Of a DNA stretch of 64,000 nucleotides, positions 25,749-50,321 are shown piece by piece. The position numbers were made by a program, and so were the translations under genes. Within the stretch, counting starts at the first letter, position 1. Each line of letters starts with the position of its first letter. The DNA comes from Candidatus Latescibacterota bacterium (lineage in GTDB: Bacteria; Latescibacterota; UBA2968; UBA8231), in contig OZ241867.1 in assembly GCA_965203175.1 (NCBI GenBank), forward strand, positions 1,440,001 through 1,504,000, written 5' to 3'. Under the pieces are notes generated by a model. That model was not told where the DNA came from. It made no database searches and saw only the letters and a list, made by a program, of their open reading frames with translations.

Positions 25749-27392
25749 CTAATCAGCAGGCTCGCGCACGGTCAGCACTTGATTGGCCGCCACATCGCGC
25801 AGCGTCTGGACTGTGCCACTGGGCCAGTGGAGGACGATGCTTTCGACGCTGGAGGCAGAACCCAAGCCAAAGTGTACCTTGAGATCGCTGTGGGAGAGAA
25901 AGCTGGTGCCACTGCGCACCTCGGCGATCTGGCGCTTCCCCTCGGCGCTTATTTCGATCCGGGTGCCGATTCCATCGCGGTTGCTGCGGGTGCCTACGGT
26001 GGCGATTTGCAAGTAGTTGCCCTCGTTGCCGCCATCATTGCGCAGGAGATTGGGAGTGCTATTGAGGTTTAATACGAAGATATCGATATCGCCGTCGCGG
26101 TCGTAGTCGGCAAAGCTGGCACCTCGGCTCACCTCGACTAAGGCAAAGCCCGGCCCGGCGCGTTCGGATACTTCGGCAAAGGTGCCGTCGCCCAAGTTTT
26201 GATAGAGGAAGTTAGGCTCGGCATAGCTGCTGTTGGTATGGGGTAAGTCGGCTTGGGGATAGGTGTGGCCATTGGCCGCAAAGAGGTCTTGATCGCCGTC
26301 GTTGTCAAAGTCGAAAAACCCCGTGCCCCATCCCACCTCGGGAATGCCCCGCGCCGCAACGCGGGATACGAAGGATACGTCGAGAAAAAATGCCCCGCGC
26401 TGATTTTTGTACAGGGTATTGTACTCGCCTTCAAAGTTGGTGACAAAGATATCGAAGTACCCGTCATTGTCGTAATCGCCGACCGCAGCACCCATGCACC
26501 CCTGTTCGGTGCCGTCGCCGCTATAGGCCACGCCCGCGCTGAGGCCCTCGTCCACAAAGGTGCCGTCGCCTTGGTTCTGGTACAGATTGTTGGGAGCCGA
26601 GTCGTTGGCGACGAAAATATCGGGCCAGCCGTCGCGGTTCAAATCGCCGAAGACGACCCCGTACCCATAGTACTTTGCACCGGCGATGCCGGCTTCCTCG
26701 CTGCGGTCGGCCAAGGTGCCGTCACCGTTGTTGCGGTAGAATACATCGCCGGCGGGGAGCAAGCCACGCGGACCGCAAAAAATATCGACGTTCTTCCATA
26801 CGCAGGGAACGGTAGAAGTATAGTCCCGCGAAAAGTCGATATAATTGGCCACGTATAGATCGACATCGCCGTCTAGATCAGTATCGCCGAAAGCGCAGCC
26901 GACGCCCCATCTTTCGTCTCCGCCACCCGCTTTTTCAGTAACATCCGCAAACGTGCCATCGCCCCGATTCTGGTAGAAGGTATTGCGGCCGAAATTGGTC
27001 ACATACAGGTCCAGATCGCCATCGTTGTCGTAGTCCGCAGCAGCACACCCCATGGACCAACTCGTGTCACCCACCCCAGCAGCGGTAGTGACGTCGACAA
27101 AACGATCCCCGTGGTTGCGGTAGAGGTAGTTAGTCGGCTTCTGGCCCGGTGGAAAGCCTTCAAAGCGGGAGCCATTGGCCACGTATAAATCGACGTCGCC
27201 GTCGCTGTCATAGTCGAAAAAGGCCGTGCCCCCCACAGCGGTTTCAACGATGTACTCTTGGGTGCTGCCCGAGACGTTCCGTGCAGTAATGCCGAGTGCG
27301 GCGGCTTGGTCGGTGAACTGAGTAGGCAGAGGTTGGGCTGCTAAGAGGGCCGTACACAGGAGGATGAAGACCCCGCTTACTAGCGCGTGCAT
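25749..27392 (-). CDS. FG-GAP/ASPIC-UnbV (CRTAC1-like) protein
   Basis: DYDNDGD repeats; SGTSFLSHSDLKVHFGLG..WPSG. Confidence 0.9.
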   Translation of the reverse strand: MHALVSGVFILLCTALLAAQPLPTQFTDQAAALGITARNVSGSTQEYIVETAVGGTAFFDYDSDGDVDLYVANGSRFEGFPPGQKPTNYLYRNHGDRFVDVTTAAGVGDTSWSMGCAAADYDNDGDLDLYVTNFGRNTFYQNRGDGTFADVTEKAGGGDERWGVGCAFGDTDLDGDVDLYVANYIDFSRDYTSTVPCVWKNVDIFCGPRGLLPAGDVFYRNNGDGTLADRSEEAGIAGAKYYGYGVVFGDLNRDGWPDIFVANDSAPNNLYQNQGDGTFVDEGLSAGVAYSGDGTEQGCMGAAVGDYDNDGYFDIFVTNFEGEYNTLYKNQRGAFFLDVSFVSRVAARGIPEVGWGTGFFDFDNDGDQDLFAANGHTYPQADLPHTNSSYAEPNFLYQNLGDGTFAEVSERAGPGFALVEVSRGASFADYDRDGDIDIFVLNLNSTPNLLRNDGGNEGNYLQIATVGTRSNRDGIGTRIEISAEGKRQIAEVRSGTSFLSHSDLKVHFGLGSASSVESIVLHWPSGTVQTLRDVAANQVLTVREPAD

Positions 27393-27439
27393 CGCTTTTG
27401 CTGCGAAACCAAAGACGAGGACAGGGTGAACGTCATACT

Positions 27440-29146
27440 TTAGGGTGCGGAAATTTTTTCAGAAAAAAACTGGAGATCGAAATAGTTCAAGGACCCATCG
27501 TCCACTTCCACGGTGGGTTGTAGAGCACCACCCCGGTACTGGGTGAGAAAAATATAGGACTTGTACCCCCGGTCTGAAAGACGTTGCAACAGGCGCTCGT
27601 AGTGTCCGGGAGTGGCAACATAAAAGAAAGGTCTTTGGTAAAATTCGCCACAGAGGGCGTGGGGAACCCAGCGCTGGTTGGTGATGACGACCTCTTCGCT
27701 GCGCTGGCGCATCTCGATATTGAGGCGATAGGAGAACGCTTTCTTCTCCGCGAGAATCGAAACTCCATACACCTGGGCAGCAAAGCTAAGCACCAGCACA
27801 GCACCCACCACGAGGACACCTCCGCTGAAGTAGGACCGCTGGCGGTCTAGCCAGTCCAGCAAGTTTCCAGCCGCTAAGACTGCAAAGAGCGGGTAGAGGA
27901 TCAGAAAGTAGCGGTTGCCCCAGTGGATGCCCATGGACCCCACCTTCGGCGCGGCCAAGGCGTAGAGTGCGGCAAAGCTCAAGGCGACCAGCCAAATCCA
28001 GTGTTTAAAAGCAGACGTTTCAGAATCGGCTGAACGCAAAAAGGCTAGGGCTACAAAGGGAGCCGAAGCAAAGAGGGCGTTGGACGATTTGAGCATGTAG
28101 TCGATGGGACTCGCAGAAAAGAAATAGCCCCCGAGAGACAAACCGGCGCTTATCAGGGCCACGGCACTGTACGCGGGCACGGCCTTTTGCAAAGCCGGGG
28201 GCGCAAAGCGCGGGCTGAGTACAAAGGCGAGGACGAACGGCAGGGCGAGGACGAGGGACAGCGAGGGGATCGGGTTGGACGCTATGAAGAGGTTGTAAAA
28301 CACCCGCGGCCGCGCCGCGAGATGGTGGATCCAGTCGGCAGCAATGGCTAGATGCGTATTCAAATGGTAACCAAACGGATGGCCGATGGTCAGCCATTGG
28401 AAGAGCCAGAGCGGCAGGAGGGAAACCAAGAGGATCAGGGCTGACGAGACGAGGATTTTTAATCTGCCGGTACTAGCATAAAAAGCGGTACATAGGGCCA
28501 GTATTAGGCAAAGCAAATAAAACTCGTCCCTGAAATAGACCGATAGCCCGGCCGCGGCCATGCCCAAGCATAGGTGCTTGGGGGCGGAGTCTGCGAGGAA
28601 CTGCAACAGATAGCGCACACTCCAAATTCCCAAGCAAATCGCCGGGGTGTGTTCCCAGAAGACGAGACTATAGAAGAACACCGGCGTACAGAGTCCAGTC
28701 GTGAGGACGGAGACATGCCCGACCGCAATTCGCTGGGATACCAAACTCGCCAGTTGGGCCAAGCCAGCCAGCATGGCCAGTGAGGAAAGCGCCGGTAACA
28801 GATAAAGGCCCCAAGGACCTAAATAGTCAAAGAACAAGGCGGAGATAAGGGCAAAGACCGGCGAGAAAACAGAGTAAAGTTTGCCGGACTCGACGCGCGT
28901 GAAATAGTAGGGCAGGGGATTGTAGACAAAGTCCGGATCGACGATCTGCCCCGGCCAAGGGATGGAAAAGTCTGCGTAGCGACTGTTAGCTAAGGCTTGG
29001 ACTTGGAGGAATTTGTTGGCGTTATCGGTAATCCAAAAGCCGCGTTTTTCGAGGGCGCAGAGGACGGCGAAATAGCAGATTGCGATGGCAAGTAGAGAGC
29101 ACAGGACCGATCTACCGGGATGGAATCGGCGGAAGAAGACGACCAT
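27440..29146 (-). CDS. GT-C-like (PMT/ArnT-type) membrane glycosyltransferase, putative
   Basis: About 13 TM segments, a first loop containing TDNANK, plus YSLVFWEHT and HWGNRYFL motifs. Confidence 0.6.
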   Translation of the reverse strand: MVVFFRRFHPGRSVLCSLLAIAICYFAVLCALEKRGFWITDNANKFLQVQALANSRYADFSIPWPGQIVDPDFVYNPLPYYFTRVESGKLYSVFSPVFALISALFFDYLGPWGLYLLPALSSLAMLAGLAQLASLVSQRIAVGHVSVLTTGLCTPVFFYSLVFWEHTPAICLGIWSVRYLLQFLADSAPKHLCLGMAAAGLSVYFRDEFYLLCLILALCTAFYASTGRLKILVSSALILLVSLLPLWLFQWLTIGHPFGYHLNTHLAIAADWIHHLAARPRVFYNLFIASNPIPSLSLVLALPFVLAFVLSPRFAPPALQKAVPAYSAVALISAGLSLGGYFFSASPIDYMLKSSNALFASAPFVALAFLRSADSETSAFKHWIWLVALSFAALYALAAPKVGSMGIHWGNRYFLILYPLFAVLAAGNLLDWLDRQRSYFSGGVLVVGAVLVLSFAAQVYGVSILAEKKAFSYRLNIEMRQRSEEVVITNQRWVPHALCGEFYQRPFFYVATPGHYERLLQRLSDRGYKSYIFLTQYRGGALQPTVEVDDGSLNYFDLQFFSEKISAP

Positions 29147-29191: not shown

Positions 29192-30226
29192 TTAGGGCGC
29201 ACTAGCCGACAAATTGTCGAAGACGATGAACTGATGCTCGGCCAGCCCCAGTTGCTCGGCTAGTTCATAACCAGCACTCATAGGCAGCGAAGGGTTCAAT
29301 TCCACAATCATCAAGTCCCGCTCCCCAGTGCCGATCTGGCCCAACTGGGCCAGTCCATCCAAGTTGCTCAGCAGGGCATTGCCGCCAACGTAGAGGCTTT
29401 TACCCACTTGCCTGAGATTATCCAACCCATCCAAGTTTTGCAGGACTTGGTTGCGGTTTATGCTCAAAGCACCTCCGATCTCCGTCAGAGCGTTCAACCC
29501 TTCCAAGCTCCTGAGGACGGGATGCTCATCAATGGCCAACCCACCCTTAACAGTCGCAATCCCGTTCAAACCCCGCAGGTCTTTGAGCGCACCATTGAAT
29601 ATGAGCAGCAAATCCCCTTCTACCACTGAGAGACTGCCCAGCCCCTTTAGATCTCGCAGGGCCTTGTTATCCCTGATTTTGATGCTACCCCCCACGTGAG
29701 TCAGCCCGCTCAGACCATCTATGTTAATCAACTCGGTCGTGGCATCGACAAAGAGATGGCCATCGACGCGCCTGAGCGCTTTAAGCCCATCCAAATCCCG
29801 CAGCGAAAAATTGCAGCTAATCTCGAAATTTCCCCCCACGCGTTCTAGCTGTTCTAACCCTTGCAGTGCAATCAATCCATTGGCGAGAATATAGAAATTT
29901 CCTTCTACATAGCTGAGATTGTGCAATCCCTTCAGGTCGGTCAGTGCCCCATTATTCCGAATTGCGAAATCTCCCTCTACTCCGACCAGATTGCGCAGCG
30001 CCTCCATGCTGCTCAAGTACGCATCCTCTAATAAAAAATCCCCCTGCACCACAAAGGCTCTCTTCTGCGCCCTCGCCCAAGCATCTAACTCCTCCTGCGA
30101 CTCAATAACTATCGCCCCAGTCCCGCCAACCGCCAGCAGCTCTTCAGCCTCCCCCTGACAGCCGATCCAAAGGGTGGCTCCCAGGACAGACGCGCCAAAA
30201 CCCCATCTCCAACTAGCCATACTCAT
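29192..30226 (-). CDS. Receptor-L-domain/LRR-like solenoid lipoprotein
   Basis: About 10 repeats of 24 aa, LxGLxxLxxVGGxLxIxxNxxL; WIGC lipobox-like motif. Confidence 0.85.
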   Translation of the reverse strand: MSMASWRWGFGASVLGATLWIGCQGEAEELLAVGGTGAIVIESQEELDAWARAQKRAFVVQGDFLLEDAYLSSMEALRNLVGVEGDFAIRNNGALTDLKGLHNLSYVEGNFYILANGLIALQGLEQLERVGGNFEISCNFSLRDLDGLKALRRVDGHLFVDATTELINIDGLSGLTHVGGSIKIRDNKALRDLKGLGSLSVVEGDLLLIFNGALKDLRGLNGIATVKGGLAIDEHPVLRSLEGLNALTEIGGALSINRNQVLQNLDGLDNLRQVGKSLYVGGNALLSNLDGLAQLGQIGTGERDLMIVELNPSLPMSAGYELAEQLGLAEHQFIVFDNLSASAP

Positions 30227-31893
30227 CCCCCCTTCACGTCTTCTTCCTCCTCTTGAATTTTCAACAAGTTATCCTCGAAAATTTCGACCGAGTACTTCTT
30301 GTGTAACCCGCGCATATACTGCACGTACGCCTTTTGCGAACGTGCAATTTTCACATAAGCCCGCGCGCGTCGCTCTGAAAAAACATGGTAGGGCTTCTTG
30401 GGGGCCGGTTGCTTCTCCTCCACCTTGAATACCGAATACCCTCCTCTCACCTTTACCGGTCCCCCGACATCCCCCACCTGCAGATCTTTGGCTACTTTGT
30501 AGATGTCTTGGTACAGCCCAATCGGACTCAAGACCAACCGCCCCTCGTGGTGCGCCCGCTCCTTGCGAATCGTATAGTCCCTAGCCAACTGCATCGCGTC
30601 GGCACCCCCCACCAACTCCTCTTTCAGGCTGTGGGCCTGCTCCTTAAAGGCCACCAGAATCTCGGTCGCGACAATGTTCTCAAAGCCCTGAAACTTCTCG
30701 GGATTTTGATCGTAAAAGGCGCGCGCCTCTGCATCGGTGATCGGCGGCAGCCGCTCCTCAACCTCTCGCTTTCTCAACGCGCTCACCAGCATATCGCTGC
30801 GCTTATTGTCCACCGCCGCGAGGATTATCTGATGTTTATCCAGTCCCTTGTTGCGGGCCTCTGCCATAAACATCCGATTGGGGATGGCCGAATCCTGTAG
30901 ATAATCGACGATCCAGGTTCGCTTGTAATCGCGCGCATACCCCTCTGCTTTTTCCGGTGCGCTCAGGACAAAATCGTCAATGGTGAGCGCGCCGCCGTTG
31001 TAGCTGCACAATACCTCTTCGCCCTCCTCAGGCGACGCCACCCGCTCTTCAGGCGACAGCGCTAGGCGCATCAGCACGTGGTCTATCTTGTCGTAGTGAA
31101 TTTGCGGCGAGTACTGGTCGCTGAGCGAATCGCGCAGACCTTGGGCGCGCTGTAGGCGCTTTTGGGCGAAAACCTCCTCCTTGACGAATTGGGCTACCTC
31201 CCGAAAGGTGACTGGAGCGTCGTCTAAAACCTTGGCGATCAAGTAGCGCTGCGGGTCGCCGCCCCATGGCAGCGGCTCGGAAACCTCGCCGACCTGCATG
31301 GAAAAGATTATCCGCAGCGGTGGAGCCGTATCGTCAATCGTATAGTACTTTTTTACATCCCCGCCCTGGTCCCGCGTCGCCTCGTAAAGCGAGTGCTCTC
31401 TGGCCAGTTGACTGAAATCAGCGCCAGCCTCTAGTTCGTCGAGCAGGTCGAGGGCCTCGTCTCGGGTCGCTACCAAAATACCCGCATAGCGCAATGCGCG
31501 ATCCCGATGCGAATCCCGGTAGTGCTGCATCAACTCCTCTTCGACAATGGAAATCCGCTGATCAATCTCGATACTTCTGTAGAGCCTGACGGTCTGCTCC
31601 TCGGCGAACTGCTTGAGCTTGTGCTTAAATTCCCGTTCGTCGCCAATGCCAGCTCGTTCCGCCTCGGCGAGCAATAGTTTCTTGTCGATCAGTCCATTGA
31701 GTAGAATCCGATCGGCCTCGACACCGGTCTTACCCATCTGGTAGGCTTTGGGAATATTCGCCGCATAGGCTCTGAACTCGCCGACGGCGATGGGTTGGTC
31801 TGCTATCTGGGCGAGCACTAGATCGTCTTGGGCTACACAGGGAAGCCAGAGCCCTAGGATGCAAACGCCTGAGCGCAGTATTCCATTCTTCAT
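30223..31893 (-). CDS. Double-parvulin PPIase/chaperone (SurA/PrsA-like)
   Basis: GADFSQLAREHS..GGD, VGEVSEP and GPVK..GYSVFKV motifs; signal peptide; 4-nt overlap with the next gene. Confidence 0.85.
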   Translation of the reverse strand: MKNGILRSGVCILGLWLPCVAQDDLVLAQIADQPIAVGEFRAYAANIPKAYQMGKTGVEADRILLNGLIDKKLLLAEAERAGIGDEREFKHKLKQFAEEQTVRLYRSIEIDQRISIVEEELMQHYRDSHRDRALRYAGILVATRDEALDLLDELEAGADFSQLAREHSLYEATRDQGGDVKKYYTIDDTAPPLRIIFSMQVGEVSEPLPWGGDPQRYLIAKVLDDAPVTFREVAQFVKEEVFAQKRLQRAQGLRDSLSDQYSPQIHYDKIDHVLMRLALSPEERVASPEEGEEVLCSYNGGALTIDDFVLSAPEKAEGYARDYKRTWIVDYLQDSAIPNRMFMAEARNKGLDKHQIILAAVDNKRSDMLVSALRKREVEERLPPITDAEARAFYDQNPEKFQGFENIVATEILVAFKEQAHSLKEELVGGADAMQLARDYTIRKERAHHEGRLVLSPIGLYQDIYKVAKDLQVGDVGGPVKVRGGYSVFKVEEKQPAPKKPYHVFSERRARAYVKIARSQKAYVQYMRGLHKKYSVEIFEDNLLKIQEEEEDVKGG

Positions 31894-31918: not shown

Positions 31919-33841
31919 TTAATAAACTAGCCGCACAACTGCGACTTCGACATCCTTGGCCTTGTCTGAATCCACTTCGAGACGCAAGAGATAGAGTCCG
32001 GGGGGTAGCAGGTTGCCCGCATCGTCCACGCCCTCCCAAGTAGCCGAAAACCGGCCACTGGCCGCTGTACTATGGGCCACCTCGCATCGCTTCACTCCCG
32101 CCAGATCGTAGAGATTGATCGTCACGGGCACATCACCGCTGAGGTTTACCAGATCGTATTCAATTTGTAGCACATCGTTGACGCCATCGCCGTTGGGAGT
32201 GAAAAGCCGCGGCGCGAGCCACAATGCCTTGACCGCTGGATTGGCCACCGTACTCAACCCGACACTTAGGGTATTGCTCTCGGCCAGATCATCGGCGTTC
32301 CCCGCCGTGATGCGCTGGCGCACTTCATGGGGGAGTTGGCTGTCGAAGACCCGGCCCGAAAACACCGTGCCCACCTGAAAGACCTCGGCCTGAAATTCGA
32401 CCTCGACCAACTCGCCCGTGCGGTTGAGATCAATTCGCGGTACTTGTACCACAAAGCTCTTCGCGTCTCTTTCCGCGATGGTAAAATCCTGTTCTTCGCC
32501 GCCAATGTACACTGCGTCAATGCTCGTGACCTCTATGGGGGTGTCGATCTCAATGCTGTCGAAGCCGAGATCACTCTGCTCTAAGTTGGGCAGGATTTTG
32601 TAGATGAATTGGACGACCTCGCCCACCTCGACTTGGTGCGGAACGATCTCGGCCAACACTTGGCTGGCCACCGGGGGTTGGGAGACATTAAACTGCAAGT
32701 ACTCCATGCGTCCGGCCGCAAGGGCTCGCTCCGAGAGGAAGTCCGCCTTGAACTGCAAGTAGCGCCGAGGCCGTGAACCCACTAATTCGGAATGGCCCCG
32801 ATCGAAATCGAGCGGCGGCGTCCAGAACTCCCAACTTTCGTTATCCGGACTAATCCCGGCTTTCTCGCCTTCCTCCAGTCTTTTATAGCGGTCTAGGGTG
32901 AGCGGTTCGCCGCTGACTGCAAAGCGAGAGCGCTCGTCGCCTCTGAACGTGAAGCGCCAATAGAAATTGGGATCCGTGTCGTCGCCGCTGCGCATGCTCA
33001 GATTGACCGTTGCGCCCTGATCTCGGCTGCCCGACCAAGTCAACTCACCTAGGCTAGAAGCCATGCCCAAATCAATGACATTGGATATATAGCTGGCCTG
33101 CGAGGCAAAGCCATCCCCGAAGATCTCAAATTCGGCGATCTCCCAATTGCCAATGGGTGCCTTAAAAAGAATTTCGGCAATGGGCCGGTCGGGCAGTTCC
33201 AAATCGAGAAAGGGCTCCAAATTATTGGCAACCGAGAACACGACATCGTAATCGAGAAAAGCCCCGCGCCAATGGTATCGCCCTTCTCGAGTTCCCTTTT
33301 TGCGCGAATCGCCATCGTTAGTGCCTATCTCGAACACCTCGATGAAGCGCTGGTGAGCAAAGCGCTCCGTGGTGGAAATTTTGATGCGGCGGATGGGAAA
33401 CAGTCCTTTTAACTCAAACCAGATGCCCTTCTTGCACGGCGAGCAGTCGGCCGACTGGCTGCGGCCACTTCCCAAATAAGCAGTGGTCAGATCCCCGTCC
33501 ATCAAGAAGTCTAAGAGGGCTTCCGATTGCCAACCGTAGGAATTGTTCGAGCGTATGCCGCCGCCCCGTTCCCGAATCAGGGGCGTCAGATTGACGGCGG
33601 GGTCTAGGCGCTGAGGCTCGATAGAATGGGGCGCGACCTCCAAGAGGTCTATCCTACCGAGCTGTTTTTCGTCCACATCAGCCCAAGACAACTGGATAAA
33701 TTCAAAGTCCCCATCCACTTCCGGCGGCGGCAGCTCCTCGCCGCCGATGCGATACACGGTGAGCGCCTCGACCGCAGCTAGCCCATAGCAAAAGCTCCCT
33801 ACTAGAGCAGCCGACAAAAGTCGCAGCAAATTCCCTCTCAT
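31919..33841 (-). CDS. Secreted protein with discoidin-like domain and FlgD-Ig/CHU_C-like tail
   Basis: DGDLTTAY, EIAEFEIFG, FTPNGDGVND...YDLAG...WEG..PPGLY motifs. Confidence 0.8.
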   Translation of the reverse strand: MRGNLLRLLSAALVGSFCYGLAAVEALTVYRIGGEELPPPEVDGDFEFIQLSWADVDEKQLGRIDLLEVAPHSIEPQRLDPAVNLTPLIRERGGGIRSNNSYGWQSEALLDFLMDGDLTTAYLGSGRSQSADCSPCKKGIWFELKGLFPIRRIKISTTERFAHQRFIEVFEIGTNDGDSRKKGTREGRYHWRGAFLDYDVVFSVANNLEPFLDLELPDRPIAEILFKAPIGNWEIAEFEIFGDGFASQASYISNVIDLGMASSLGELTWSGSRDQGATVNLSMRSGDDTDPNFYWRFTFRGDERSRFAVSGEPLTLDRYKRLEEGEKAGISPDNESWEFWTPPLDFDRGHSELVGSRPRRYLQFKADFLSERALAAGRMEYLQFNVSQPPVASQVLAEIVPHQVEVGEVVQFIYKILPNLEQSDLGFDSIEIDTPIEVTSIDAVYIGGEEQDFTIAERDAKSFVVQVPRIDLNRTGELVEVEFQAEVFQVGTVFSGRVFDSQLPHEVRQRITAGNADDLAESNTLSVGLSTVANPAVKALWLAPRLFTPNGDGVNDVLQIEYDLVNLSGDVPVTINLYDLAGVKRCEVAHSTAASGRFSATWEGVDDAGNLLPPGLYLLRLEVDSDKAKDVEVAVVRLVY

Positions 33842-33872
33842 TATCTACTTCCTACACCGGTAGATGATCTAG

Positions 33873-33918: not shown

Positions 33919-33946
33919 TGAGGCGCTTATGCGGCGCAAGAACCGC

Positions 33947-34867
33947 TTACTTGCCGAATGAAGCCTTGATCTGGCCCCAAGTGTTGTCTTCAACGGCTGT
34001 GGGCTCGATACCTTCAAAGGCGGACTCGTCAACGCCCAGCATCACCCAATCGGCAAAGAAATCAGCGTCGCCGAAGGACTCGACGTTGGGACCGATAGCC
34101 CAGCGCGAATGGCAGTTACAATCGTCGGATAGCTCGGCATCAGTATCGAAGACGTGCCCTGTAAGGCCGATGATCTCGTCCTGCTGGAAGTCGTGGAGGA
34201 CGCTTCCGGCGGGATCTTCCCAGTTGAAGTCGTCCCAATAGACGCTCCACCATTCGGCCCGTTGGCGCATCTCCTCAAAGGAATTGGGAGCCGTGCCGCT
34301 AAACCAATAGGCGTGATCGGAGTACGGCGGCGTGTCGTACCAGGTAGCCTGGGTCATCCAGAACCAGTTCCACTCTCCTTCACGGGCTTGGCCATTGTCG
34401 AACCAATAGTGGCTGATTTGGGCATGGCGACCGCGCTGGCGTGCCTTCTCCTCGTCGGTTTGGCCTTCCAGATCCCAGAAGGAGCCGCCCGAGTGATCGG
34501 CGTCCACAGTCGTTTCGATCGACTCGTTGCCCAACTGGTACTTGTCGTCGAAGCGCTCGTAGGCCCAGTAGATGCGGTTGGTTTCCTCGTTCCAAGTGGG
34601 AATCCAGCGGAAGGAAATCGAGGACACGTCCAAATCGCCGGTGTAGATCCACGCCCGAGTCGTGCTCTGTACGACGTTCTGCTCGGTGATCCAAAATTCC
34701 TCGGGAATGATATCCCACTCGCTCAGATCGGCATCTAAGACCGGCAAGTGAGTCTCAGGCCATTGCCACACCGCGCCGATAAAATCGGGCGGATCGTGGG
34801 CTTGTACCTGGGAGTTCAAGCCAAGCAAAAGCACGGGGGTAAATAAGACGGATAAAACTTTCTTCAA
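33947..34867 (-). CDS. Secreted CBM9/DOMON-like protein with TWGQIK tail
   Basis: TTG start after AAGGAGG; PVLDADLSEW, WNEETNRIYW..DD and VDADHSGG motifs; ends TAVEDNTWGQIKASFGK. Confidence 0.7.
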   Translation of the reverse strand: MKKVLSVLFTPVLLLGLNSQVQAHDPPDFIGAVWQWPETHLPVLDADLSEWDIIPEEFWITEQNVVQSTTRAWIYTGDLDVSSISFRWIPTWNEETNRIYWAYERFDDKYQLGNESIETTVDADHSGGSFWDLEGQTDEEKARQRGRHAQISHYWFDNGQAREGEWNWFWMTQATWYDTPPYSDHAYWFSGTAPNSFEEMRQRAEWWSVYWDDFNWEDPAGSVLHDFQQDEIIGLTGHVFDTDAELSDDCNCHSRWAIGPNVESFGDADFFADWVMLGVDESAFEGIEPTAVEDNTWGQIKASFGK

Positions 34868-34929
34868 AGCGACCCTCCTTCTTAGAGGTGTGAGGTTTTG
34901 CAGGTTTATGTACTTGATTTCTACGCTTC

Positions 34930-40669: not shown

Positions 40670-40729
40670 TGCCCATCCTCCCAATTCTGCATGGTAAAAT
40701 TCATCGCGAGGAAATCTCCTCGCCTAGCA

Positions 40730-43000: not shown

Positions 43001-43090
43001 ATCTGTCTGATTCGACTGCTCTGGGCTAAGGCAAATAACTGTATGAAATACGAGAGGATACAGCAACCAAAATCCGGCAACGCATAGCAG

Positions 43091-44437
43091 CTACGGTTGG
43101 TTCGCTTCAATCCGGATCTCGCCCGTAAACCCACCGGCGATCAAACGCTCCACTAGGGCCTTAGCTTCGGTGCTCGGCAGGTTTCTATTGGCCCGAATCG
43201 CCAGCCGACCACCTACTCTTTCGAGCGTTGCCAAGCCCGCTACACTCTGCAATTTCTCGTTAAATTGGATGAATAAATGGCCTTCAATAGTCCTGAGTTC
43301 GCGCAGCCCAATCAGATTCGTCAGGGCACTGTTGCCGAAGATGGATAGCACCCCCCTTATTCGGCTTAGGCGGTGTAGCCCTTCCAAACTGAGCAGTGCG
43401 CCATTATCGACGACCAGCAAATCCCCGCCGACGTAGTCTAGGCGGCGCAGACCTGCCAAATTTTGCAGCGCACTATTGTCGATGATCAAGAGGAGCCCCT
43501 CAATGCGGGCCAAGCGGGCCAAGCCCTCGAGATCGGGCAGGACGCTATTGGCCTGAATCAGCAAATCCCCGCCGATGCGCTGGCACCCGGCCAAGCCCGC
43601 CAACGATACCAGCGCATCGTTTTGCTCGACTCTCAGACTGCCCCCGATCTGACTCAGGTTGCCCAAGCCCGCCAAGCGCTCCAGACGGGCGTTGCCGATG
43701 ACCAATACATTCCCAGCGACGCGCTCGAGTTGTTCTAGGCCTGCCAGCTCGACCAAGGCTCTATTTCTCTTGATCCGCAAAAAGTCGCCCACATCCTCCA
43801 GCCGCCGCAGTCCTCCCAACGCTTGCAACGCCCGATTGCGCTCTATGGCCAGCCCGCCCTTTAGGCGCTTGATTCCCTCCAACCCCACCAGACTTTCTAG
43901 CGATCCATTGCCGACGACGAGAACCTGCCCTTCTATCGCCTCCAATCGCTCCAGCCCATCAATGTGGGCGAGACGGCGATTGAATTGAATCCTGAGCGAC
44001 TCGCCCACGCGACTAATCCGACGCAATCCCTTCAGGCCGACCAAGGCATCGTTGCGCTCGACTATTAAGCTACCCCCCAATTCCTCCAGAGACCACAATC
44101 CCTCCAAATCCACGAGTTTGGGATTGCGCCGGATTCGCAGACTGCCCCCAATCCGCTTTAGGTGGTGCAGGCCCTCCAAACTTTGCAACGAATCACAATG
44201 TTCAATGCTCAGATCGCCTCCTATATATTCGAGCTGCTCCAACCCACGCAGCGTTTTCAGTTGGTCGCTCTGCACGAGCAAATGCCCTTCGACAGACCGG
44301 CCCGTCAAAGCGCGTAGGTCGGCTGCCGAATCGATGACAAACCCTTCTGCTGGTTTGTTCGACTCAGCCGCTTGTACCGGGCCAACACTCCAACATAACA
44401 TCCCCATTAGCAGTGCAACCAAGGCTCTATGATCCAT
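43091..44437 (-). CDS. Receptor-L-domain/LRR-like solenoid protein
   Basis: 15 consecutive 24-aa repeats; signal peptide. Confidence 0.85.
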   Translation of the reverse strand: MDHRALVALLMGMLCWSVGPVQAAESNKPAEGFVIDSAADLRALTGRSVEGHLLVQSDQLKTLRGLEQLEYIGGDLSIEHCDSLQSLEGLHHLKRIGGSLRIRRNPKLVDLEGLWSLEELGGSLIVERNDALVGLKGLRRISRVGESLRIQFNRRLAHIDGLERLEAIEGQVLVVGNGSLESLVGLEGIKRLKGGLAIERNRALQALGGLRRLEDVGDFLRIKRNRALVELAGLEQLERVAGNVLVIGNARLERLAGLGNLSQIGGSLRVEQNDALVSLAGLAGCQRIGGDLLIQANSVLPDLEGLARLARIEGLLLIIDNSALQNLAGLRRLDYVGGDLLVVDNGALLSLEGLHRLSRIRGVLSIFGNSALTNLIGLRELRTIEGHLFIQFNEKLQSVAGLATLERVGGRLAIRANRNLPSTEAKALVERLIAGGFTGEIRIEANQP

Positions 44438-44486
44438 TGTGGATTCTCGGGCTAAAATTCCCTTGGTCAACGCGAAGGACCCAAAG

Positions 44487-46106
44487 TCAGCGAGTAGGTT
44501 GGACTACCCGTATAATCTGATTGGCGTCAACAGCGGCCAACGTCTGCACTTGGCCGTCGGGCCAGCGAATCGCGATATCCGCCTTCGTCGCCCGGCCGAG
44601 GCCAAAGTGAAGGCGGGGATCGTGACTGGATAGATAGCTCCCCCCGGACTGGCGCTCCCGAACCTGACGCACACCACCAGCGGTAACAGTGACGTGGGTA
44701 CCCAGTGCATCCCGCTGACTAGTACCGACCAAGAGGAGTTCGATCCAGTGCTGGCGATTGCCCCCGTCGTTGCGCAATAGACGAGGCCGCCCGGCCACGG
44801 TGGTCGCCAGCAAATCCAGATCGCCGTCGTTGTCCCAATCGGCTGACGCCGCGCCGCGAACCACGCTCTCAACGACAAAGTCGGCACCCAATTGGTCGGA
44901 GACTTCTTCAAAGTGGGCACCACCTTGGTTGCGCAGCATAAGGTCGGGCTGGGCGTAGAAAAGGTCGCCGTCGAGTTGCTCAATATTATCCACCACGTGC
45001 CCATTGCCGACATACAAATCGAGGTCGCCGTCGTTGTCGTAGTCCATAAATTTGGTCCCGAACCCCAAGGGCAGATAGCTGGGTGCCCCCAAGCCGAAGT
45101 GGGCGGTAAAATCGGCAAAGCGTCCCCGGCCATCGTTCCAGTAGAGGGTGTTGGTCTCGCGCGAGTAATTGGTCACGAAAAGATCGGCGTACCCGTCGTT
45201 GTCGAAATCGCCGAAATCTACTCCCATACCGGCTTCGGCGTGCCCATCTTCGTTGTATTGCACTCCAGCTCTCAGGCCGATCTCGACAAAGCGCGTTCCT
45301 TGGTTTTCATAGAGAAAATTCGGCGTGCCGTCGTTGGCCACGTAAATATCCGTATCGCCGTCCAAATCGCTGTCTGCAAAGGCCACGCCCAGTCCCCGGC
45401 CCACCGCGCGGATACCCAGCCTCTTGGTCACATCGACAAAGCGTCTCCCCTCGTTGCGATAAAGCACATCCCCAATGGGTGCGTAGGTACTCGGCTCGCA
45501 GTAAAAGCGAAGCGCCCCCCGCTGGCATTGGATATTGCCCTGCAAGCTGAAATGCACATAATTGGCCACAAAAAGGTCCAAATCCCCATCGTTGTCGAAA
45601 TCCAAAAATCCGGTGCTGGTGCCCCAGCGCCCGTCGCCCACACCAGCTCTTTGGGTGACGTCCGCAAAGCGCCCCTCACCGTCATTGCTCAACAGCACAT
45701 TGGGACCGAAGTTGGTCGCGTAGAGATCTTGATCCCCATCGTTGTCGAAATCGCCCGCCGCACATCCCATGCCGTAGCCCCGGTCGCCAGCTCCAGACGC
45801 AACAGTGAGATCGGCGAAAGTCCCATCGCCAGCGTTGCGATAGAGATGGTTAATGGGCGGGATCGGGGGAAGGGTCCCCGAGAGATGGGCACCATTGATC
45901 AGGTAGAGGTCCTGCCAGCCGTCCCCATCGGCATCAAAAAACGCCGCGCCTGCGCCAAAGGTCTCAACATAGTAGTATTCGCCTTGAGCGCCGTTGTAGT
46001 GCTGGAAGTCAATCCCGGCTTCTTGGGAGACTTCCCGGTAGCGCACCTGGGCCTCTGCCGCAGCGACAAAAGCGCACAAGATGGACAATACTGCGTATCT
46101 TCTCAT
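44487..46106 (-). CDS. FG-GAP/ASPIC-UnbV (CRTAC1-like) protein
   Basis: DFDNDGD repeats; QSGGSYLSSHDPRLHFGLG; closely resembles the C-terminal part of 16435..19005. Confidence 0.9.
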   Translation of the reverse strand: MRRYAVLSILCAFVAAAEAQVRYREVSQEAGIDFQHYNGAQGEYYYVETFGAGAAFFDADGDGWQDLYLINGAHLSGTLPPIPPINHLYRNAGDGTFADLTVASGAGDRGYGMGCAAGDFDNDGDQDLYATNFGPNVLLSNDGEGRFADVTQRAGVGDGRWGTSTGFLDFDNDGDLDLFVANYVHFSLQGNIQCQRGALRFYCEPSTYAPIGDVLYRNEGRRFVDVTKRLGIRAVGRGLGVAFADSDLDGDTDIYVANDGTPNFLYENQGTRFVEIGLRAGVQYNEDGHAEAGMGVDFGDFDNDGYADLFVTNYSRETNTLYWNDGRGRFADFTAHFGLGAPSYLPLGFGTKFMDYDNDGDLDLYVGNGHVVDNIEQLDGDLFYAQPDLMLRNQGGAHFEEVSDQLGADFVVESVVRGAASADWDNDGDLDLLATTVAGRPRLLRNDGGNRQHWIELLLVGTSQRDALGTHVTVTAGGVRQVRERQSGGSYLSSHDPRLHFGLGRATKADIAIRWPDGQVQTLAAVDANQIIRVVQPTR

Positions 46107-46197
46107 ATACTAACTGCTTGGCTACTTTGACCGGCAATCTAACCGCATCGACGAACCGGGACCCCTCGTGCAAATACACCTAAAAAACGGGCGCTCA

Positions 46198-47724
46198 ATG
46201 GCCCGCGTTCACCTACCCTGCAAAAAGGTCTTGGCTTGGCTTGGAGCCGCCTTTTGTCTCCTCATCTGCGCCTGTGGACCCAAGGAACGCGATCCTTTGG
46301 TCCGTGCCGGGATGTACGCCTTTGCTCAGGAGCGCTACAGCGAAGCTATCGTCGCCTTTCACAAGGCATTGGCCTCACGCGCCGACGATTGCGAAGTCCA
46401 CCACTATCTCGCTCGCTCTTACCTAGCACTGGGCAAATTTCCCCAAGCCCTGCGCGCGATCGAACACGCGATTGAACTAGCCCCCCAAAAGGACCAGACG
46501 CGCTCCGAGTTATACGAAGTCCTCGGCATCATCCACACGGCTCGCTACACCTCCAGAGCGTATAGCCAAAACCAGCACCGTGATGTCGAAGCAGCGCGAG
46601 CCGCCTTTGAGCAAGCGACCGCGCTCGATCCCCGCCGAGCAACAGCGTACTACAACTTGGGCTTACTGTACGGCTATCGCAAAGAAGTAGATCAGGCTCA
46701 AGCAGCGTACACGGCGGCCTTGGAGGCAGATTCAACCTTGGCACCGGCCTACAAGAAATTGGGCAAAATCCAGCGGGAAAAGGGGTTCCCACCCGAGGCA
46801 GCTACGGCCTTCAAAAAAGCGGTACGCTTCGACCCGCAGGACGCCGAAGCGCACTTTCTCTTGGGATTGGCCCAGCGCGATATGGGCGATAATGAGGCGG
46901 CTTTGCAGGCGCTACTCAAGGCCACCGAACTCAACCCCGACTCGCCCAAGCTCCGCCTCAACCTTGGCAATGTCTATCTCCGGTTGGGCCGCCGCGAAGA
47001 GGGCAAGCGGGAAATGGCCCGTTCCGAAAGCCTGCGCCAACAGCATCGGGGCTTGCACTCCGAAATCTCCCCGCCGGCGCACAGATCGCTCTCCATCGGC
47101 TCGGCGCGGGATCACTACAATATGGGCTTGAAGCACCAAATGGTCGGCGAAACTGACCAAGCTTTATTAGAGTTTCGTCGCGCGGTCGAAATCAAACCCG
47201 ATCACAAAGACGCCCACATCGGCCTCGGCCTCCTCCTCGCCGAGCAAGGCCGGCAAAGACAGGCAGCCCGGTATTTCCAGCGGGCCATCGAGCTGGATCC
47301 AGAAAATCCCGTTCTGTACGTACATCTAGGCAATGCTCACTATCAGTCGGAATCACTCGCAAGGGCGGCCCAAACCTTCGCCAAGGCGGCCCAACTCGAC
47401 ACTTCCCTCGTCGAGCCTCACTACATGCTTGGTTTGATCGCCGCCCAAGAACGCCGGTTCAAAGTAGCCACGCGACTTTTTGCCCAAGTCACGGCCCTCG
47501 CCCCCCAGTACGCCAAAGCCCACTTCAACCTAGGAGTAGCCCATGCCCAACTCGGAGACTTTGCCGCGGCCCGGACCGCCTACCAACGCTTTGTCGAATT
47601 GGAGCCCGAAGATGGGCGCGGACACCTCTACTTGGGCGATGCCTGCGAAGCGCTCGGCCTGCTCGAAGAGAGTCGCAAGCATCGAGCGCGTGGTCAGCAG
47701 CTTTTGGAACGAGACGAAAACTAA
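46198..47724 (+). CDS. TPR lipoprotein
   Basis: ICAC lipobox-like motif; multiple TPRs. Confidence 0.88.
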   Translation: MARVHLPCKKVLAWLGAAFCLLICACGPKERDPLVRAGMYAFAQERYSEAIVAFHKALASRADDCEVHHYLARSYLALGKFPQALRAIEHAIELAPQKDQTRSELYEVLGIIHTARYTSRAYSQNQHRDVEAARAAFEQATALDPRRATAYYNLGLLYGYRKEVDQAQAAYTAALEADSTLAPAYKKLGKIQREKGFPPEAATAFKKAVRFDPQDAEAHFLLGLAQRDMGDNEAALQALLKATELNPDSPKLRLNLGNVYLRLGRREEGKREMARSESLRQQHRGLHSEISPPAHRSLSIGSARDHYNMGLKHQMVGETDQALLEFRRAVEIKPDHKDAHIGLGLLLAEQGRQRQAARYFQRAIELDPENPVLYVHLGNAHYQSESLARAAQTFAKAAQLDTSLVEPHYMLGLIAAQERRFKVATRLFAQVTALAPQYAKAHFNLGVAHAQLGDFAAARTAYQRFVELEPEDGRGHLYLGDACEALGLLEESRKHRARGQQLLERDEN

Positions 47725-50321
47725 TAGGCCACGGCTAGCGTGCGCACCAATTCCTCCTGACCTAGCTCAGCGCCTGACGTATTGGCATCCAGCCGCAAAT
47801 GCATTGCGTACACCCCCGGCGGCACGAGCGACCCTTTTTCGTTCCTTCCGTCCCATCCCATTTCGTAAATTCCCGAGGCAAAATCTCGCTGCTCGGTTAG
47901 CTGGCGCACCAAGCGTCCCTGCAAATCGTAGATAGTGGCCTCAACCCGCTGACTGCCCTCCACTAAAACCACTGAAAAGCGCAACGTCACCTCGTCGTTG
48001 ACCCCATCCCCATTTGGCGTCAATACCGCTGGCTCGACCACTAAATCCGCAAAAATCGAGCGACTCTGCGGCTGCCCCACTACCAATAGCCGATTGCTGC
48101 CGACCGTCTCCACAGCTTCCCCTGGATCGACGCGCTGCCAGATCCCCTCCCCATCTTCTCCTTGACGCAGTTGCACCTTTAGCGGGCCACCGCGAGAAAA
48201 CAGCCGCCCCGCAAAGTCTATCCGCAACGCCGTCACTTCGCTTCCCGGCTCTAGCGGGGCAAAGGACAAATGCACCCGGTCCGCCGCTGCGGCCAGCACC
48301 TCCGCCTCCAAGGGTGAAAAATCCTCCCCATCCGCACTCCCCAACAACCCGTCATACGTTAGTTCCATGCCCGCTGGTGCTTCCAACAACAACTCGTTGA
48401 ATCCCCCATCCCCTGCGCCGAACTCGGGTCGCACATACACCGAAAAAGGTACCTCAGCCGCCAGCCGATCCACCTGACTGGGCACTACCTCTCCCAAGAG
48501 GCGCCGCGCCACCGGCTCGGCAAAATTCAGCCGCAGCCCTGACAAACTCGCCGCCACATCCGGTGCGGCCGAGCGCAACGTCGCCCGCACCTTGAGAAAC
48601 TCCCGTGGCGACGGCGAAGTAATAGGGCTGCCTCCCGGCTCGTCGTAGGGCACACTCCACGGCTCCCAGTCTGCGCCGGCGACTTCCTCGGACACAGTCT
48701 CACCGCGAAAAATGCTCAATAGTTTGTTGTAGGCCGCTTCGGAGATTTCGGTTCCATCCTTTTTGAAATAGTGCACGATCTCGCCCAAGGTGTCGCCGGT
48801 GCGGGTCTGAAGCAGCACCTCGGTGCCAGGCGGCGCGTGCGCATCCCACTCGAGGGAAACCAAGTTGCGGCTGCCCCCCAACCGGATCAGGTCCGACTCG
48901 AGTTGCACCTCTGGCAAGAACCCCTCGCCAAAAAGTTGTATCTCGCTCATCCTGATAGCGCTCCGGTTGGGAAGGCGCACATGTTCTACTTCAAACACCA
49001 AGCGAAAAAAGCGACCCTTTACCGGATCGAAGTCATTGCCATCGACGGTGAGGGCCCCCGCGACGCTCCGCTTTACTTGCTCGCGCCGCACGGCAGTGAT
49101 CCACTTGAGGCCCCCGTCCACCTCCCGCGAACCGTCCGAAAATTCCAATCGATGGTTCCCAGGGGCGTACTCCGTGAAACTCATCCTGTGGCTATGGATC
49201 CAGAAGAACGAGCCCAAATCAATGAACAACTCGTCCTCTAACCGATTCTCGATGCTGAATAGGTCCAGCCCCTCTACGCTGGTTATATCGCCGTCGATCA
49301 TCAATTGGGGATTGATGCTGCCGGGCACTGTAATAGAAATGGAGCCATTGCGCCGCAAGGCCCCACTGGCCAAATCGTCGCCTTGGGTCCAGACTTCGAG
49401 TTCGGCCAACCGGGGCCGCTCGCGCCGAAAGTAGCGTATCGTTCCCCGCCGCTGAGGATCGAGAGCCTCGTACACTTCCTGTTTGACCACGATCTCCCGC
49501 CCGTCGGCTTGGCGCTTGCTATATTCGATGAGCCCTCTATCCTCGGAGGGTAGCTGATCGTACTCCTCTGGGGATACTTCTCGGCCACGGCCAAAATCGC
49601 TGGCCTGCACAACCACTTGGACAAAGCGTCCCACGGCCCGACGCTGATCGAGCCCTACTGGGTCGAGTTCGACTTCAAAGGTTCGCTGGCTTTTGTTGGG
49701 CTTTAGTGTCTGGAGCACCGGAAAGAACTCGAGGCTCGACCCGCCGATTGCCTGTACTGGCTTCTGTCCGTCCGATACCAGTACATCGAATAAAAGAAAG
49801 GGATCGCCCATTCCCTCCTCGACGAATTTTAGCGCGATCTTGTTGATGAAGACAACGCGGCCCAAATCCACGGTAAACCACCACTGAGACGATAGATCTA
49901 CATTTTCAGCGATCGGATCGGGTTCCCAATACGTGGTCAAGTCGCCATCTAGGGCGGCGACGACTCCTTCGCGGTTGGAACCACCTTGAATGGCGTCGAG
50001 CAGGACGATGTCTTCAGGCTCTTTCTTTTTTTTAGCGATATAATCTGGAGGGTTATAGCGCAGAAAATCGACGATATCTAGGGCGGCGTTGGTGTTTTTG
50101 TGGACGCGATTGGGCCGCACCTCTCCGAGTGGGGAAATCTGGATCGTACCGGGCGCAAATTCCCAGTGATCCCAGTGATCGGGTCCGACGACGACTTGAT
50201 TCGCACTGCGGTCGATCCGATGGCCTGCTTGAGCCAGCAAATCCCCGACCCCATTCGACCAAAGCAAAAGCACGGCGCTGACCACTATAAGGCGCGAGAA
50301 GTGTTTCGTGCGGATATTCAT
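47721..50321 (-). CDS. Secreted protein with two discoidin-like domains and FlgD-Ig/CHU_C-like tail
   Basis: DGDLTTYW..VDLG, IDGD..IDLG, SPSPREF and LTPNGDGVND...WDGRN..PPGVY motifs. Confidence 0.8.
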   Translation of the reverse strand: MNIRTKHFSRLIVVSAVLLLWSNGVGDLLAQAGHRIDRSANQVVVGPDHWDHWEFAPGTIQISPLGEVRPNRVHKNTNAALDIVDFLRYNPPDYIAKKKKEPEDIVLLDAIQGGSNREGVVAALDGDLTTYWEPDPIAENVDLSSQWWFTVDLGRVVFINKIALKFVEEGMGDPFLLFDVLVSDGQKPVQAIGGSSLEFFPVLQTLKPNKSQRTFEVELDPVGLDQRRAVGRFVQVVVQASDFGRGREVSPEEYDQLPSEDRGLIEYSKRQADGREIVVKQEVYEALDPQRRGTIRYFRRERPRLAELEVWTQGDDLASGALRRNGSISITVPGSINPQLMIDGDITSVEGLDLFSIENRLEDELFIDLGSFFWIHSHRMSFTEYAPGNHRLEFSDGSREVDGGLKWITAVRREQVKRSVAGALTVDGNDFDPVKGRFFRLVFEVEHVRLPNRSAIRMSEIQLFGEGFLPEVQLESDLIRLGGSRNLVSLEWDAHAPPGTEVLLQTRTGDTLGEIVHYFKKDGTEISEAAYNKLLSIFRGETVSEEVAGADWEPWSVPYDEPGGSPITSPSPREFLKVRATLRSAAPDVAASLSGLRLNFAEPVARRLLGEVVPSQVDRLAAEVPFSVYVRPEFGAGDGGFNELLLEAPAGMELTYDGLLGSADGEDFSPLEAEVLAAAADRVHLSFAPLEPGSEVTALRIDFAGRLFSRGGPLKVQLRQGEDGEGIWQRVDPGEAVETVGSNRLLVVGQPQSRSIFADLVVEPAVLTPNGDGVNDEVTLRFSVVLVEGSQRVEATIYDLQGRLVRQLTEQRDFASGIYEMGWDGRNEKGSLVPPGVYAMHLRLDANTSGAELGQEELVRTLAVAY

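Follow-up and report, generated by a model that had tools for sequence, protein, structure and literature searches.

In Bacteroidota, SusC/SusD loci occur in dozens per genome and combine an outer-membrane barrel with surface carbohydrate-binding proteins, and barrels of the PorP/SprF type are roughly 300-400 amino acids (aa) long. According to excerpts of PMC9143113 and PMC12618676, the barrel in type B systems of the Bacteroidota (PG1035-PorP-PorE; SprB-SprF) binds the cargo and fixes its final place; 12 type B substrates are given for F. johnsoniae in the excerpts of the latter. Here we describe a gene cluster from the phylum Latescibacterota that shares features with both arrangements. It lies in a stretch of 64,000 nucleotides (the window), bases 1,440,001-1,504,000 of the single-contig 6.58-Mb genome of an uncultured sponge-associated Latescibacterota bacterium, and is centered on a run of eleven consecutive minus-strand open reading frames (ORFs) from position 46106 down to 25749. 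The cluster encodes two predicted giant barrel proteins (the twins), proteins with a C-terminal CHU_C/FlgD_ig domain (the tailed proteins), a double parvulin and a CBM9-like protein. An initial annotation, made from the sequence alone, had proposed a self-contained secretion or surface-assembly system.

We read the cluster as one copy of an about 40-fold repeated surface cassette that depends on type IX secretion (the T9SS) and by which a ligand is captured and probably imported (probability about 0.5). The cluster thus would probably capture or take up molecules at the cell surface and not be a secretion machine of its own.

With T9SS type B and PorP/SprF systems, the cassettes share a C-terminal tail that passes the CHU_C cut-off, cargo genes beside outer-membrane barrels, and many such pairs per genome. 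However, the barrels here are about 900-1000 aa long, often occur as A/B pairs, and are not matched by PorP_SprF; scores for the NCBIfam type B model remain below its cut-off, a parvulin and a CBM9-fold protein belong to the cassettes in addition, and 40 loci are found in this member of the Latescibacterota, compared to the 12 substrates in F. johnsoniae in the excerpts cited above. With SusC/SusD, the likeness is in diverged loci for a barrel and carbohydrate-binding proteins, some of them beside regulators, transporters and sugar-catabolic genes. In contrast to SusC/SusD, the barrels here are without Plug or TonB-dependent-receptor domain (52 members), no SusD family match was obtained among the 13 cluster proteins (Pfam, E <= 0.01), and the surface proteins would be delivered by a T9SS-type tail and not as lipoproteins; unlike classical polysaccharide utilisation loci, the cassettes scanned contain no glycoside hydrolases except for one of the GH108 lysozyme type. 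In its logic the cassette stands between type B/PorP-SprF and SusC/SusD, and it fails to match either, being without PorP/SprF barrel, Plug and SusD. In the literature searched, no paper links Latescibacterota to type IX secretion or to these barrels, and the excerpts of a 2015 genomic survey of Latescibacteria (PMC4454575) mention only non-specific porins and Plug-domain receptors.

If the reading is correct, a whole phylum, including abundant sponge symbionts, would meet its surroundings via an undescribed surface apparatus, with about 8% of the genome spent on forty variants of it; type IX secretion with cargo-specific partner barrels would extend beyond the Bacteroidota, the barrels would represent a new family of very large outer-membrane barrels, and there would be a testable candidate for complex-glycan handling in bacteria without SusC/SusD loci. 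Should the import part hold as well, the cassettes would be outer-membrane uptake machines of a new class, which has diversified into forty variants within a single genome.

Gene content of the cluster

The genes of the run and its direct neighbours are as follows (window coordinates; Pfam matches of the 13 cluster proteins were listed at E <= 0.01).

44487..46106, minus strand: FG-GAP/VCBS propeller with ASPIC/UnbV C-terminal domain, 539 aa, first gene of the run (Pfam FG-GAP_3, E 6e-47; UnbV_ASPIC, E 2e-23)
43091..44470, minus strand: LRR-like solenoid, 459 aa (Pfam Recep_L_domain, E 1e-25; LRR_EndoS, E 2e-6)
40730..43066, minus strand: tailed secreted protein, 778-aa ORF (CHU_C 33.1 bits, FlgD_ig 29.4 bits; cut-off 27)
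37886..40684, minus strand: predicted giant outer-membrane barrel, A type (twin A), 932 aa (no Pfam/NCBIfam match; 40% identical to the B twin)
34968..37883, minus strand: predicted giant outer-membrane barrel, B type (twin B), 971 aa (AlphaFold2 model, structural matches)
33947..34867, minus strand: exported protein of predicted CBM9/DOMON fold, 306 aa (model and Foldseek)
31919..33841, minus strand: tailed secreted protein, 640 aa, of a family shared with the 778-aa protein (CHU_C 30.6 bits, cut-off 27; FlgD_ig 24.8 bits)
30223..31893, minus strand: PrsA/SurA-like periplasmic chaperone with two parvulin domains, 556 aa (Rotamase_3 at 144-207, Rotamase_2 at 385-502)
29192..30226, minus strand: LRR-like solenoid, probable lipoprotein, 344 aa, 4-nt overlap with the parvulin gene (Recep_L_domain, E 1e-13)
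27440..29146, minus strand: polytopic membrane protein, GT-C-like putative glycosyltransferase, 568 aa (NCBIfam NF047440, below cut-off)
25749..27392, minus strand: second FG-GAP/ASPIC propeller, 547 aa, last gene of the run (FG-GAP_3, E 2e-59; UnbV_ASPIC, E 1e-22)
46168..47724, plus strand: TPR protein, 518 aa, divergent from the run (Pfam TPR families)
47721..50330, minus strand: third tailed secreted protein, 869 aa, separate transcription unit (F5_F8_type_C, E 2e-7; FlgD_ig 33.5 bits; CHU_C 30.6 bits)
23761..25710, plus strand: DUF6785/DUF6784 polytopic membrane protein, 649 aa, convergent with the run (Pfam DUF6785, E 7e-131)

In the ORF listing, the run contains a 4-nt overlap (30223-30226) and a 2-nt gap (37884-37885), and its remaining gaps are <=105 nt. 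The likely start of the 778-aa ORF is an internal Met ahead of the signal peptide, and the 869-aa tailed ORF reaches 50330, with its first ATG at 50321. Signal-peptide-like hydrophobic N termini were recognized by eye in 13/13 cluster proteins, and a lipobox-like Cys, likewise by eye, in the 344-aa LRR-like protein (N terminus ...LWIGC) and the 518-aa TPR protein. The initial annotation had described this run with its overlap and gap, the third tailed gene at 47721, signal peptides in almost all proteins, and the domains of the individual genes; the coordinates are as it gave them, the third tailed gene (47721-50330) carries both CHU_C and FlgD_ig above cut-off, and the domains, including the double parvulin, were recovered in the Pfam and NCBIfam scans, with the GT-C-like match just below its cut-off and the CBM9 fold coming from a structural model.

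Repetition of the cassette in the genome

The genome encodes 62 barrel paralogues, which form 40 loci (21 single, 16 double, 3 triple) when barrels within 6 genes of each other are merged. Counted within 6 genes, a tailed gene is found at 40/40 of these loci, a parvulin at 34/40, a TPR gene at 27/40, a CBM9-like gene at 24/40, an FG-GAP gene at 20/40 and a DUF6785 membrane protein at 19/40; a GT-C-like gene and an LRR-like gene are each found at 1/40, the window locus. A cassette thus comprises one to three giant barrels, two to four tailed proteins, usually a double parvulin, and often a CBM9-fold protein, and the barrels together with the nearby tailed, parvulin and CBM9-like genes make up 8.2% of the genome. 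Of the 38 parvulin paralogues, 35 have a barrel no more than 6 genes away, as do 25 of the 32 CBM9-like paralogues, compared to a background of 561 of 5117 genes (11%); for the tailed genes, 119 of 197 have one within 5 genes, a distance at which the background can only be below 11%. The association is therefore more than chance would give.

Among 22 neighbours from ten sister loci, proteins of DUF6785/6784, an ABC binding protein with permease, an MR/MLE dehydratase, an HpcH aldolase, a 2-hydroxyacid dehydrogenase and a SorC-type sugar-binding regulator were found. Two small families that are absent from the window also occur near barrels, one of about 260 aa (17 members, 14 near barrels) and one of about 335 aa (12 members, 9 near barrels), neither with a Pfam match; the examined representative of the latter (g168) ends in a SWAKIK tail, and an example locus for both is C1:204559-206386 (L093).

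The cluster is conserved in relatives. Twin B is 86-97% identical in 21 loci of other genomes, 17 of them >=15 kb long, and in 16 of these 17 long orthologous loci the genes for the parvulin and for the CBM9-like, LRR-like, GT-C-like and FG-GAP proteins are retained in unchanged order; one (L039) diverges after the twins. In 29 long loci around more distant relatives, the tailed gene is present in 28, the CBM9-like gene in 25 and the parvulin in 17, and the GT-C-like and LRR-like genes in none (0/29). A barrel gene (E <= 1e-20) was found in 90 of 151 sampled genomes of the phylum, that is, in 63/63 genomes of the window's own family and in 0/49 of two other families of the same class. Conserved neighbourhood of the twins, which the initial annotation had named as a check on its proposal, is therefore seen for twins, tailed gene, parvulin and CBM9-like gene alike in orthologous, paralogous and other Latescibacterota loci.

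The stretch 31919-40684 is nearly wholly represented in DNA runs of sponge metagenomes, which are the majority, and of coded organisms. Contigs from four RNA libraries of four studies, with 90-99% likeness (hence from relatives), cover parts of most genes and span the junctions of parvulin and 640-aa tailed protein (PPI/CTD640; library X17, record 17), of 640-aa tailed protein and CBM9-like protein (CTD640/U3; X16, record 11), and of twin B and twin A (X17, record 20); contig depth cannot rank the genes, and no meaning is attached to bins that single RNA runs leave uncovered, such as 43009-43675. In three of the four RNA libraries, the contig word depth over the CBM9-like gene (33671-35004) is far above that of its neighbours (141-147 in X16, 305-498 in X17 and 37-49 in X19; neighbours mostly <40), and one 958-nt contig covers this gene alone (33926-34883). 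This may be taken as a weak hint at the CBM9-like gene as a separate abundant transcript, with contig depth being a poor measure and the RNA runs having been found with a query stretch that included this gene.

Predicted giant outer-membrane barrels

Twins A and B are 40% identical over their full length and gave no family match in Pfam or NCBIfam (E <= 0.01), and the sequence profile of the barrel family gave 0 PDB matches; they are paralogs of about 950 aa without known family, as the initial annotation had it. Among 1.84 billion proteins, the family comprises 659 representatives at 50% identity. In the 120 matches listed, every source-given name is 'hypothetical protein', and the labelled sources are metagenome-assembled genomes of Latescibacteria or Gemmatimonadetes. 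None of the 30 clusters nearest to the twin in the ESM Atlas has a name; among named clusters, DUF6029 comes closest (0.89), a lead only. With 659 clusters at 50% identity and no counterpart in Pfam, NCBIfam or PDB, the family represents an annotation gap.

In a tree of the 62 barrels of the genome, the window twins fall into two sister clades of ten members each; the pairing of A and B is therefore old, and the twins did not arise by duplication at this locus. The gene order tailed gene - A barrel - B barrel is found in 9/10 A/B loci, and in the tenth the parvulin lies between the barrels.

The AlphaFold2 model of the 971-aa twin B (68 relatives aligned; predicted local distance difference test score, pLDDT, 76.9; predicted template modelling score, pTM, 0.72) consists almost wholly of beta structure; in its DSSP string, 26 strands that are >=9 residues long were counted from residue 139 to 970. 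Its first approximately 130 residues are strongly conserved in sequence and of low model confidence. An acidic segment (approximately 545-655) is without regular structure and contains many invariant Asp and Asn; its DxNxNGxxDxxE-like loops resemble a calcium-binding motif. Structural matches (Foldseek, VIA-align) were large outer-membrane barrels only, so that, by the model, the fold class of the twins as outer-membrane beta-barrels is clear; the family is not.

The best structural match is Deinococcus SlpA (Foldseek E 3e-8, template modelling (TM) score 0.18; VIA-align Z 14.5, root-mean-square deviation 7.0 over 426 residues), followed by MtrB, LptD, ushers, AlgE, porins and SprA, many of them tied at Z 11-13.5. 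SlpA/OmpM proteins of Deinococcus-Thermus and other Terrabacteria (8ae1; PMC9388160) are very large barrels, too, and SlpA_C was matched below threshold (top score 30.2 bits, cut-off 35) in 12/52 diverse barrel-family members, with a common profile stretch at about 232-305, a possible sign of very remote kinship; one divergent barrel paralogue of the window's genome (C1:5649240-5649614) also gives a sub-threshold SlpA_C match. The barrels could accordingly be viewed as general structural or porin proteins of the SlpA/OmpM kind, placed beside tailed genes by co-duplication only and without joint function. We regard this as highly improbable: the window twins have no SlpA_C match (Pfam, E <= 0.1), many unrelated barrels tie behind SlpA, whose own TM-score is low, and none of the 52 members has an SLH domain, nor was a coiled-coil tether found here; moreover, SlpA is a single abundant protein, whereas the 62 diverged copies with conserved partners, in 63/63 family genomes sampled, argue for specialised roles. 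Plug, TonB_dep_Rec and PorP_SprF were likewise without match in the 52 members (Pfam, E <= 0.1).

Tailed proteins and type IX secretion genes

CHU_C matches the C terminus of all three tailed window proteins above the Pfam cut-off of 27 (33.1, 30.6 and 30.6 bits), and FlgD_ig does so in the 778- and 869-aa proteins and falls just under it in the 640-aa protein (24.8 bits). The NCBIfam type B model TIGR04131 gave 24.1, 16.9 and 21.6 bits, with a cut-off of 35, and the type A sorting models TIGR04183 and PF18962 gave no listing for the three proteins (E <= 0.01). A profile of the tail alone matched 249 proteins genome-wide; the tail ends <=10 aa from the C terminus in 238 of these, and 90% have a hydrophobic N terminus, versus 38% of all ORFs. 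The tail therefore behaves as a C-terminal sorting domain.

After removal of the last 95 residues, the bodies of 168 of the 197 tailed proteins, including all three of the window, fall into one single-linkage family, 114 members of which lie near barrels. In an alignment of this family (n=30), FlgD_ig was matched in 29/30, CHU_C in 29/30 and F5_F8_type_C in 11/30 (E <= 0.01), and the family profile matches structures of FlgD, CBM32 (2rva, 4a41) and CBM6; an ESM Atlas search with the body of the 640-aa protein returned only hypothetical clusters with F5_F8_type_C, CHU_C or FlgD_ig. By these matches, the heads of the tailed proteins appear lectin-like, of the discoidin/CBM32 type.

T9SS genes are encoded elsewhere in the genome. 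SprA is represented by a 2133-aa open frame at 2.482-2.488 Mb (TIGR04189, 490 + 124 bits, 618 with neighbours; cut-off 200) and PorU by a match of 632.5 bits (cut-off 420), with a PorV-like gene (349 aa) 97 nt downstream of PorU that stays below its cut-off (147.5 versus 250 bits); SprA is about 1.0 Mb and the PorU-PorV pair about 1.5 Mb away from the window. GldK gave partial matches only (<=84 bits, cut-off 350). PorP/SprF gave no genome-wide match, with a silent control, and none among the 13 cluster proteins. The whole-genome search for T9SS core genes, which the initial annotation had proposed, hence yields SprA and PorU above their cut-offs and the PorV-like gene below its threshold; GldL, GldM and GldN were without match, their models being silent also in the controls. 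The same annotation had considered that the tails might be served by a canonical T9SS elsewhere, with no link to these genes. The former part stands, in that the tails can be served elsewhere; the latter does not, the link of the tails to the cluster genes being strong.

These findings bear on the initial proposal of a self-contained, T9SS-independent secretion system, with the twins as channel, the parvulin as chaperone, the tailed proteins as cargo, and the GT-C enzyme for glycosylation or anchoring. The tight co-location of twins, tailed genes and parvulin here and elsewhere would fit such a system, as would the presence of ushers and SprA among the weak structural matches, and with GldL, GldM and GldN undetected in the genome the canonical machinery may be incomplete. 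However, SprA and PorU are above their cut-offs with the PorV-like gene (147.5 bits, cut-off 250) adjoining PorU, no ATPase or motor gene is found among the cluster proteins in the Pfam scan, and 249 tailed proteins are set against 40 barrel loci, with 78/197 tailed genes far from barrels; a single cargo family served by forty secretion systems in parallel would be without precedent. The proposal is thus very unlikely. The window cluster is one of 40 cassettes and not a single system, the tail, carried by 249 proteins, is not the cargo tag of one local system, and neither the GT-C enzyme, with its gene at 1/40 loci, nor the LRR-like solenoids, nor the FG-GAP propellers (27/60 adjoin a TPR gene, only 26/60 are near a barrel) hold as parts of the module.

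Parvulin and CBM9-like protein

The 556-aa parvulin protein has PDB sequence matches to PrsA, Cell-binding factor 2 (Cbf2, 3rfw), the PEB4 chaperone of Campylobacter, and PpiC. It resembles SurA, PrsA and PEB4 in having two parvulin domains in an exported protein. It differs in that the SurA N-terminal domain was not detected (Pfam, E <= 0.01), and in that 38 paralogues are present in this genome, 35 of them at barrel loci.

For the 306-aa protein no Pfam or NCBIfam family was found, and its family profile gave 0 PDB sequence matches; Pfam CBM9_1 matches 1/25 family members (E 4e-4). In its structural model (pLDDT 78.2) it has a CBM9 fold, as the initial annotation had suspected, with Foldseek matches to the CBM9 structures 7nwn (E 3.0e-8, target TM 0.71) and 1i82 (E 3.8e-8, TM 0.70) and to DOMON-type haem subunits lower in the list. 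Although the fold is that of CBM9 modules (T. maritima Xyn10A, 1i82) and DOMON haem subunits, the protein is stand-alone, exported, and about 100 residues longer than CBM9 modules, with a conserved His and a C-terminal tail: conserved in the family are a His that directly follows the predicted signal-peptide cleavage site (AH.P), a DADHSGG motif, and the tail TAVExxSWGxIKxxF, which is disordered in the model. This (T/S)AVExxSWGxIKxxF motif sits about 15 residues or less from the stop. A loose pattern (W[GAS].[IVLM]K) near the end was found in 88 ORFs of the genome, of which 27 are of the CBM9-like family and the others unrelated proteins of 180-380 aa, a few matches being probably due to chance; about a dozen such genes form a tandem array 60-80 kb before the window (C1:1361532-1382219). 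The SWGxIK-type motif may be a second undescribed sorting or docking signal.

Proposed function

In the proposed cassette, the tailed proteins would cross the inner membrane by Sec and the outer membrane via the single canonical translocon of the genome (SprA, with PorU-PorV), and they would remain at the surface with the barrels of their own cassette, as type B cargo does with PorP/SprF. There they would capture a cassette-specific ligand, most likely a glycan, which would enter the periplasm through the very wide barrel and be taken over by the CBM9-like protein and inner-membrane transporters (DUF6785; ABC systems in sister loci); the parvulin would chaperone barrels or cargo in the periplasm. 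The forty-fold diversification, the lectin-like heads, and the uptake and catabolic genes beside sister loci argue for ligand capture and probably import. A more specific form of this proposal is tentative, and we hold it possible with the odds against it: the barrels may serve as channels for import in a system taking up glycans or macromolecules, which Latescibacterota would have evolved as a parallel to SusC/SusD and which would work independently of a TonB plug, with T9SS-delivered lectins as lids that capture the substrate on an A/B pair of barrels of about 26 or more long strands, and with the cassette-specific parvulin and the CBM9/DOMON protein as further parts.

The cassettes could also serve for display only, with the barrels as cognate anchors or shuttles (an enlarged analogue of PorP/SprF) for variable surface adhesins, e.g. 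to the sponge matrix, and without any import. Tailed genes adjoin every barrel locus (40/40), their tails pass the Pfam type B model CHU_C, the scanned cassettes showed no degradative enzymes, and the DNA sources that hold the stretch are mostly sponge metagenomes; in Bacteroidota, according to the excerpts available, type B cargo binds a genetically linked PorP/SprF barrel (PMC9143113, PMC12618676). But the barrels, with about 26 or more long strands and 900-1000 aa, are far above the need of an anchor, PorP_SprF is unmatched in the 52 family members (E <= 0.1) and in the window twins (E <= 0.01), and sister loci adjoin transporters, sugar-acid enzymes and a sugar-sensing regulator. We consider display without import rather unlikely.

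Several observations weigh against a T9SS-dependent capture and import cassette. The barrels carry no Plug or TonB-dependent-receptor signal (0/52 members at E <= 0.1), and all 31 Plug-domain genes of the genome are located elsewhere than the barrel cassettes; there is therefore no evident energy source for import. A GH108 lysozyme-type protein excepted, no glycoside hydrolase or lyase was found in the 13 cluster proteins or the 22 sister-locus neighbours. GldL, GldM and GldN gave no match in the genome and none in any of the 14 control genomes, and since these controls and that for PorP_SprF were silent, the T9SS here may or may not be complete. Of the 197 tailed genes, 78 are located away from any barrel, so that the tail does not need a neighbouring barrel. 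The RNA-library contigs indicate presence only, and prove neither transcription nor a single transcript. Finally, what the analysis shows is which genes are present, their paralogy and enrichment, the recurring architecture, the folds by model, and SprA and PorU together with a PorV-like gene, whereas the physical associations of the parts, the direction of transport and the ligand are what we infer.

Accessory and neighbouring genes

The window cassette is the only copy in the genome with a GT-C-like enzyme and LRR-like solenoids, which is its particular addition to the cassette type, and its 12-gene block is kept in close relatives. The 568-aa protein matches NCBIfam NF047440 ('LA_3751/LA_3752 family putative glycosyltransferase') over positions 4-458 of the 460-position profile (184 bits, E 4e-54; cut-off 200), and gave no Pfam match and no PDB sequence match. 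Its gene is single-copy (the one phmmer match in the genome is the protein itself) and is present in 16/17 long orthologous loci and 0/39 other loci. In the orthologous locus of one close relative (L023) it is read as two ORFs (347 + 230 aa), which may reflect a frameshift or an assembly error. The 459-aa LRR-like protein has 4 paralogues only in the genome, and like the GT-C-like gene the LRR-like genes accompany a barrel only at the window locus.

FG-GAP/ASPIC proteins have 60 paralogues in the genome; 26 of their genes have a barrel no more than 6 genes away, and 27 have a TPR gene next to them. They were rejected as part of the cassette core, since only 20/40 loci have one and 27/60 pair with a TPR gene; FG-GAP and TPR genes behave as a separate, recurrent two-gene module, and the first FG-GAP gene of the run probably belongs to such an accessory module and not to the core of the cassette. 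Upstream of the cluster, and close to it, are a TPR gene and three more FG-GAP/ASPIC genes, one of which also has pentapeptide repeats, at the following positions.

9379-11670, plus strand: FG-GAP/ASPIC or TPR gene
14433-16424, minus strand: FG-GAP/ASPIC or TPR gene
16435-19125, minus strand: FG-GAP/ASPIC or TPR gene
19180-21135, plus strand: FG-GAP/ASPIC or TPR gene

Two DUF6785/DUF6784 genes are found in the window (23761-25710, plus strand; 1418-3577, minus strand). Of the 51 DUF6785 paralogues in the genome, 20 have a barrel within 6 genes and 30 have one within 10; the family was not mentioned in the literature searched, and the protein is a possible inner-membrane partner or transporter of the cassette. 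Six nt upstream of the DUF6785 gene at 23761-25710 lies a gene for an 844-aa protein with a spermine/spermidine-synthase domain (21221-23755, plus strand), which has 9 paralogues, 5 of them within 6 genes of a barrel. The 64-kb window furthermore contains six PhyH (phytanoyl-CoA dioxygenase) genes (482-1324, 5776-6639, 6653-7441, 54918-56189, 56195-56953 and 58119-59000).

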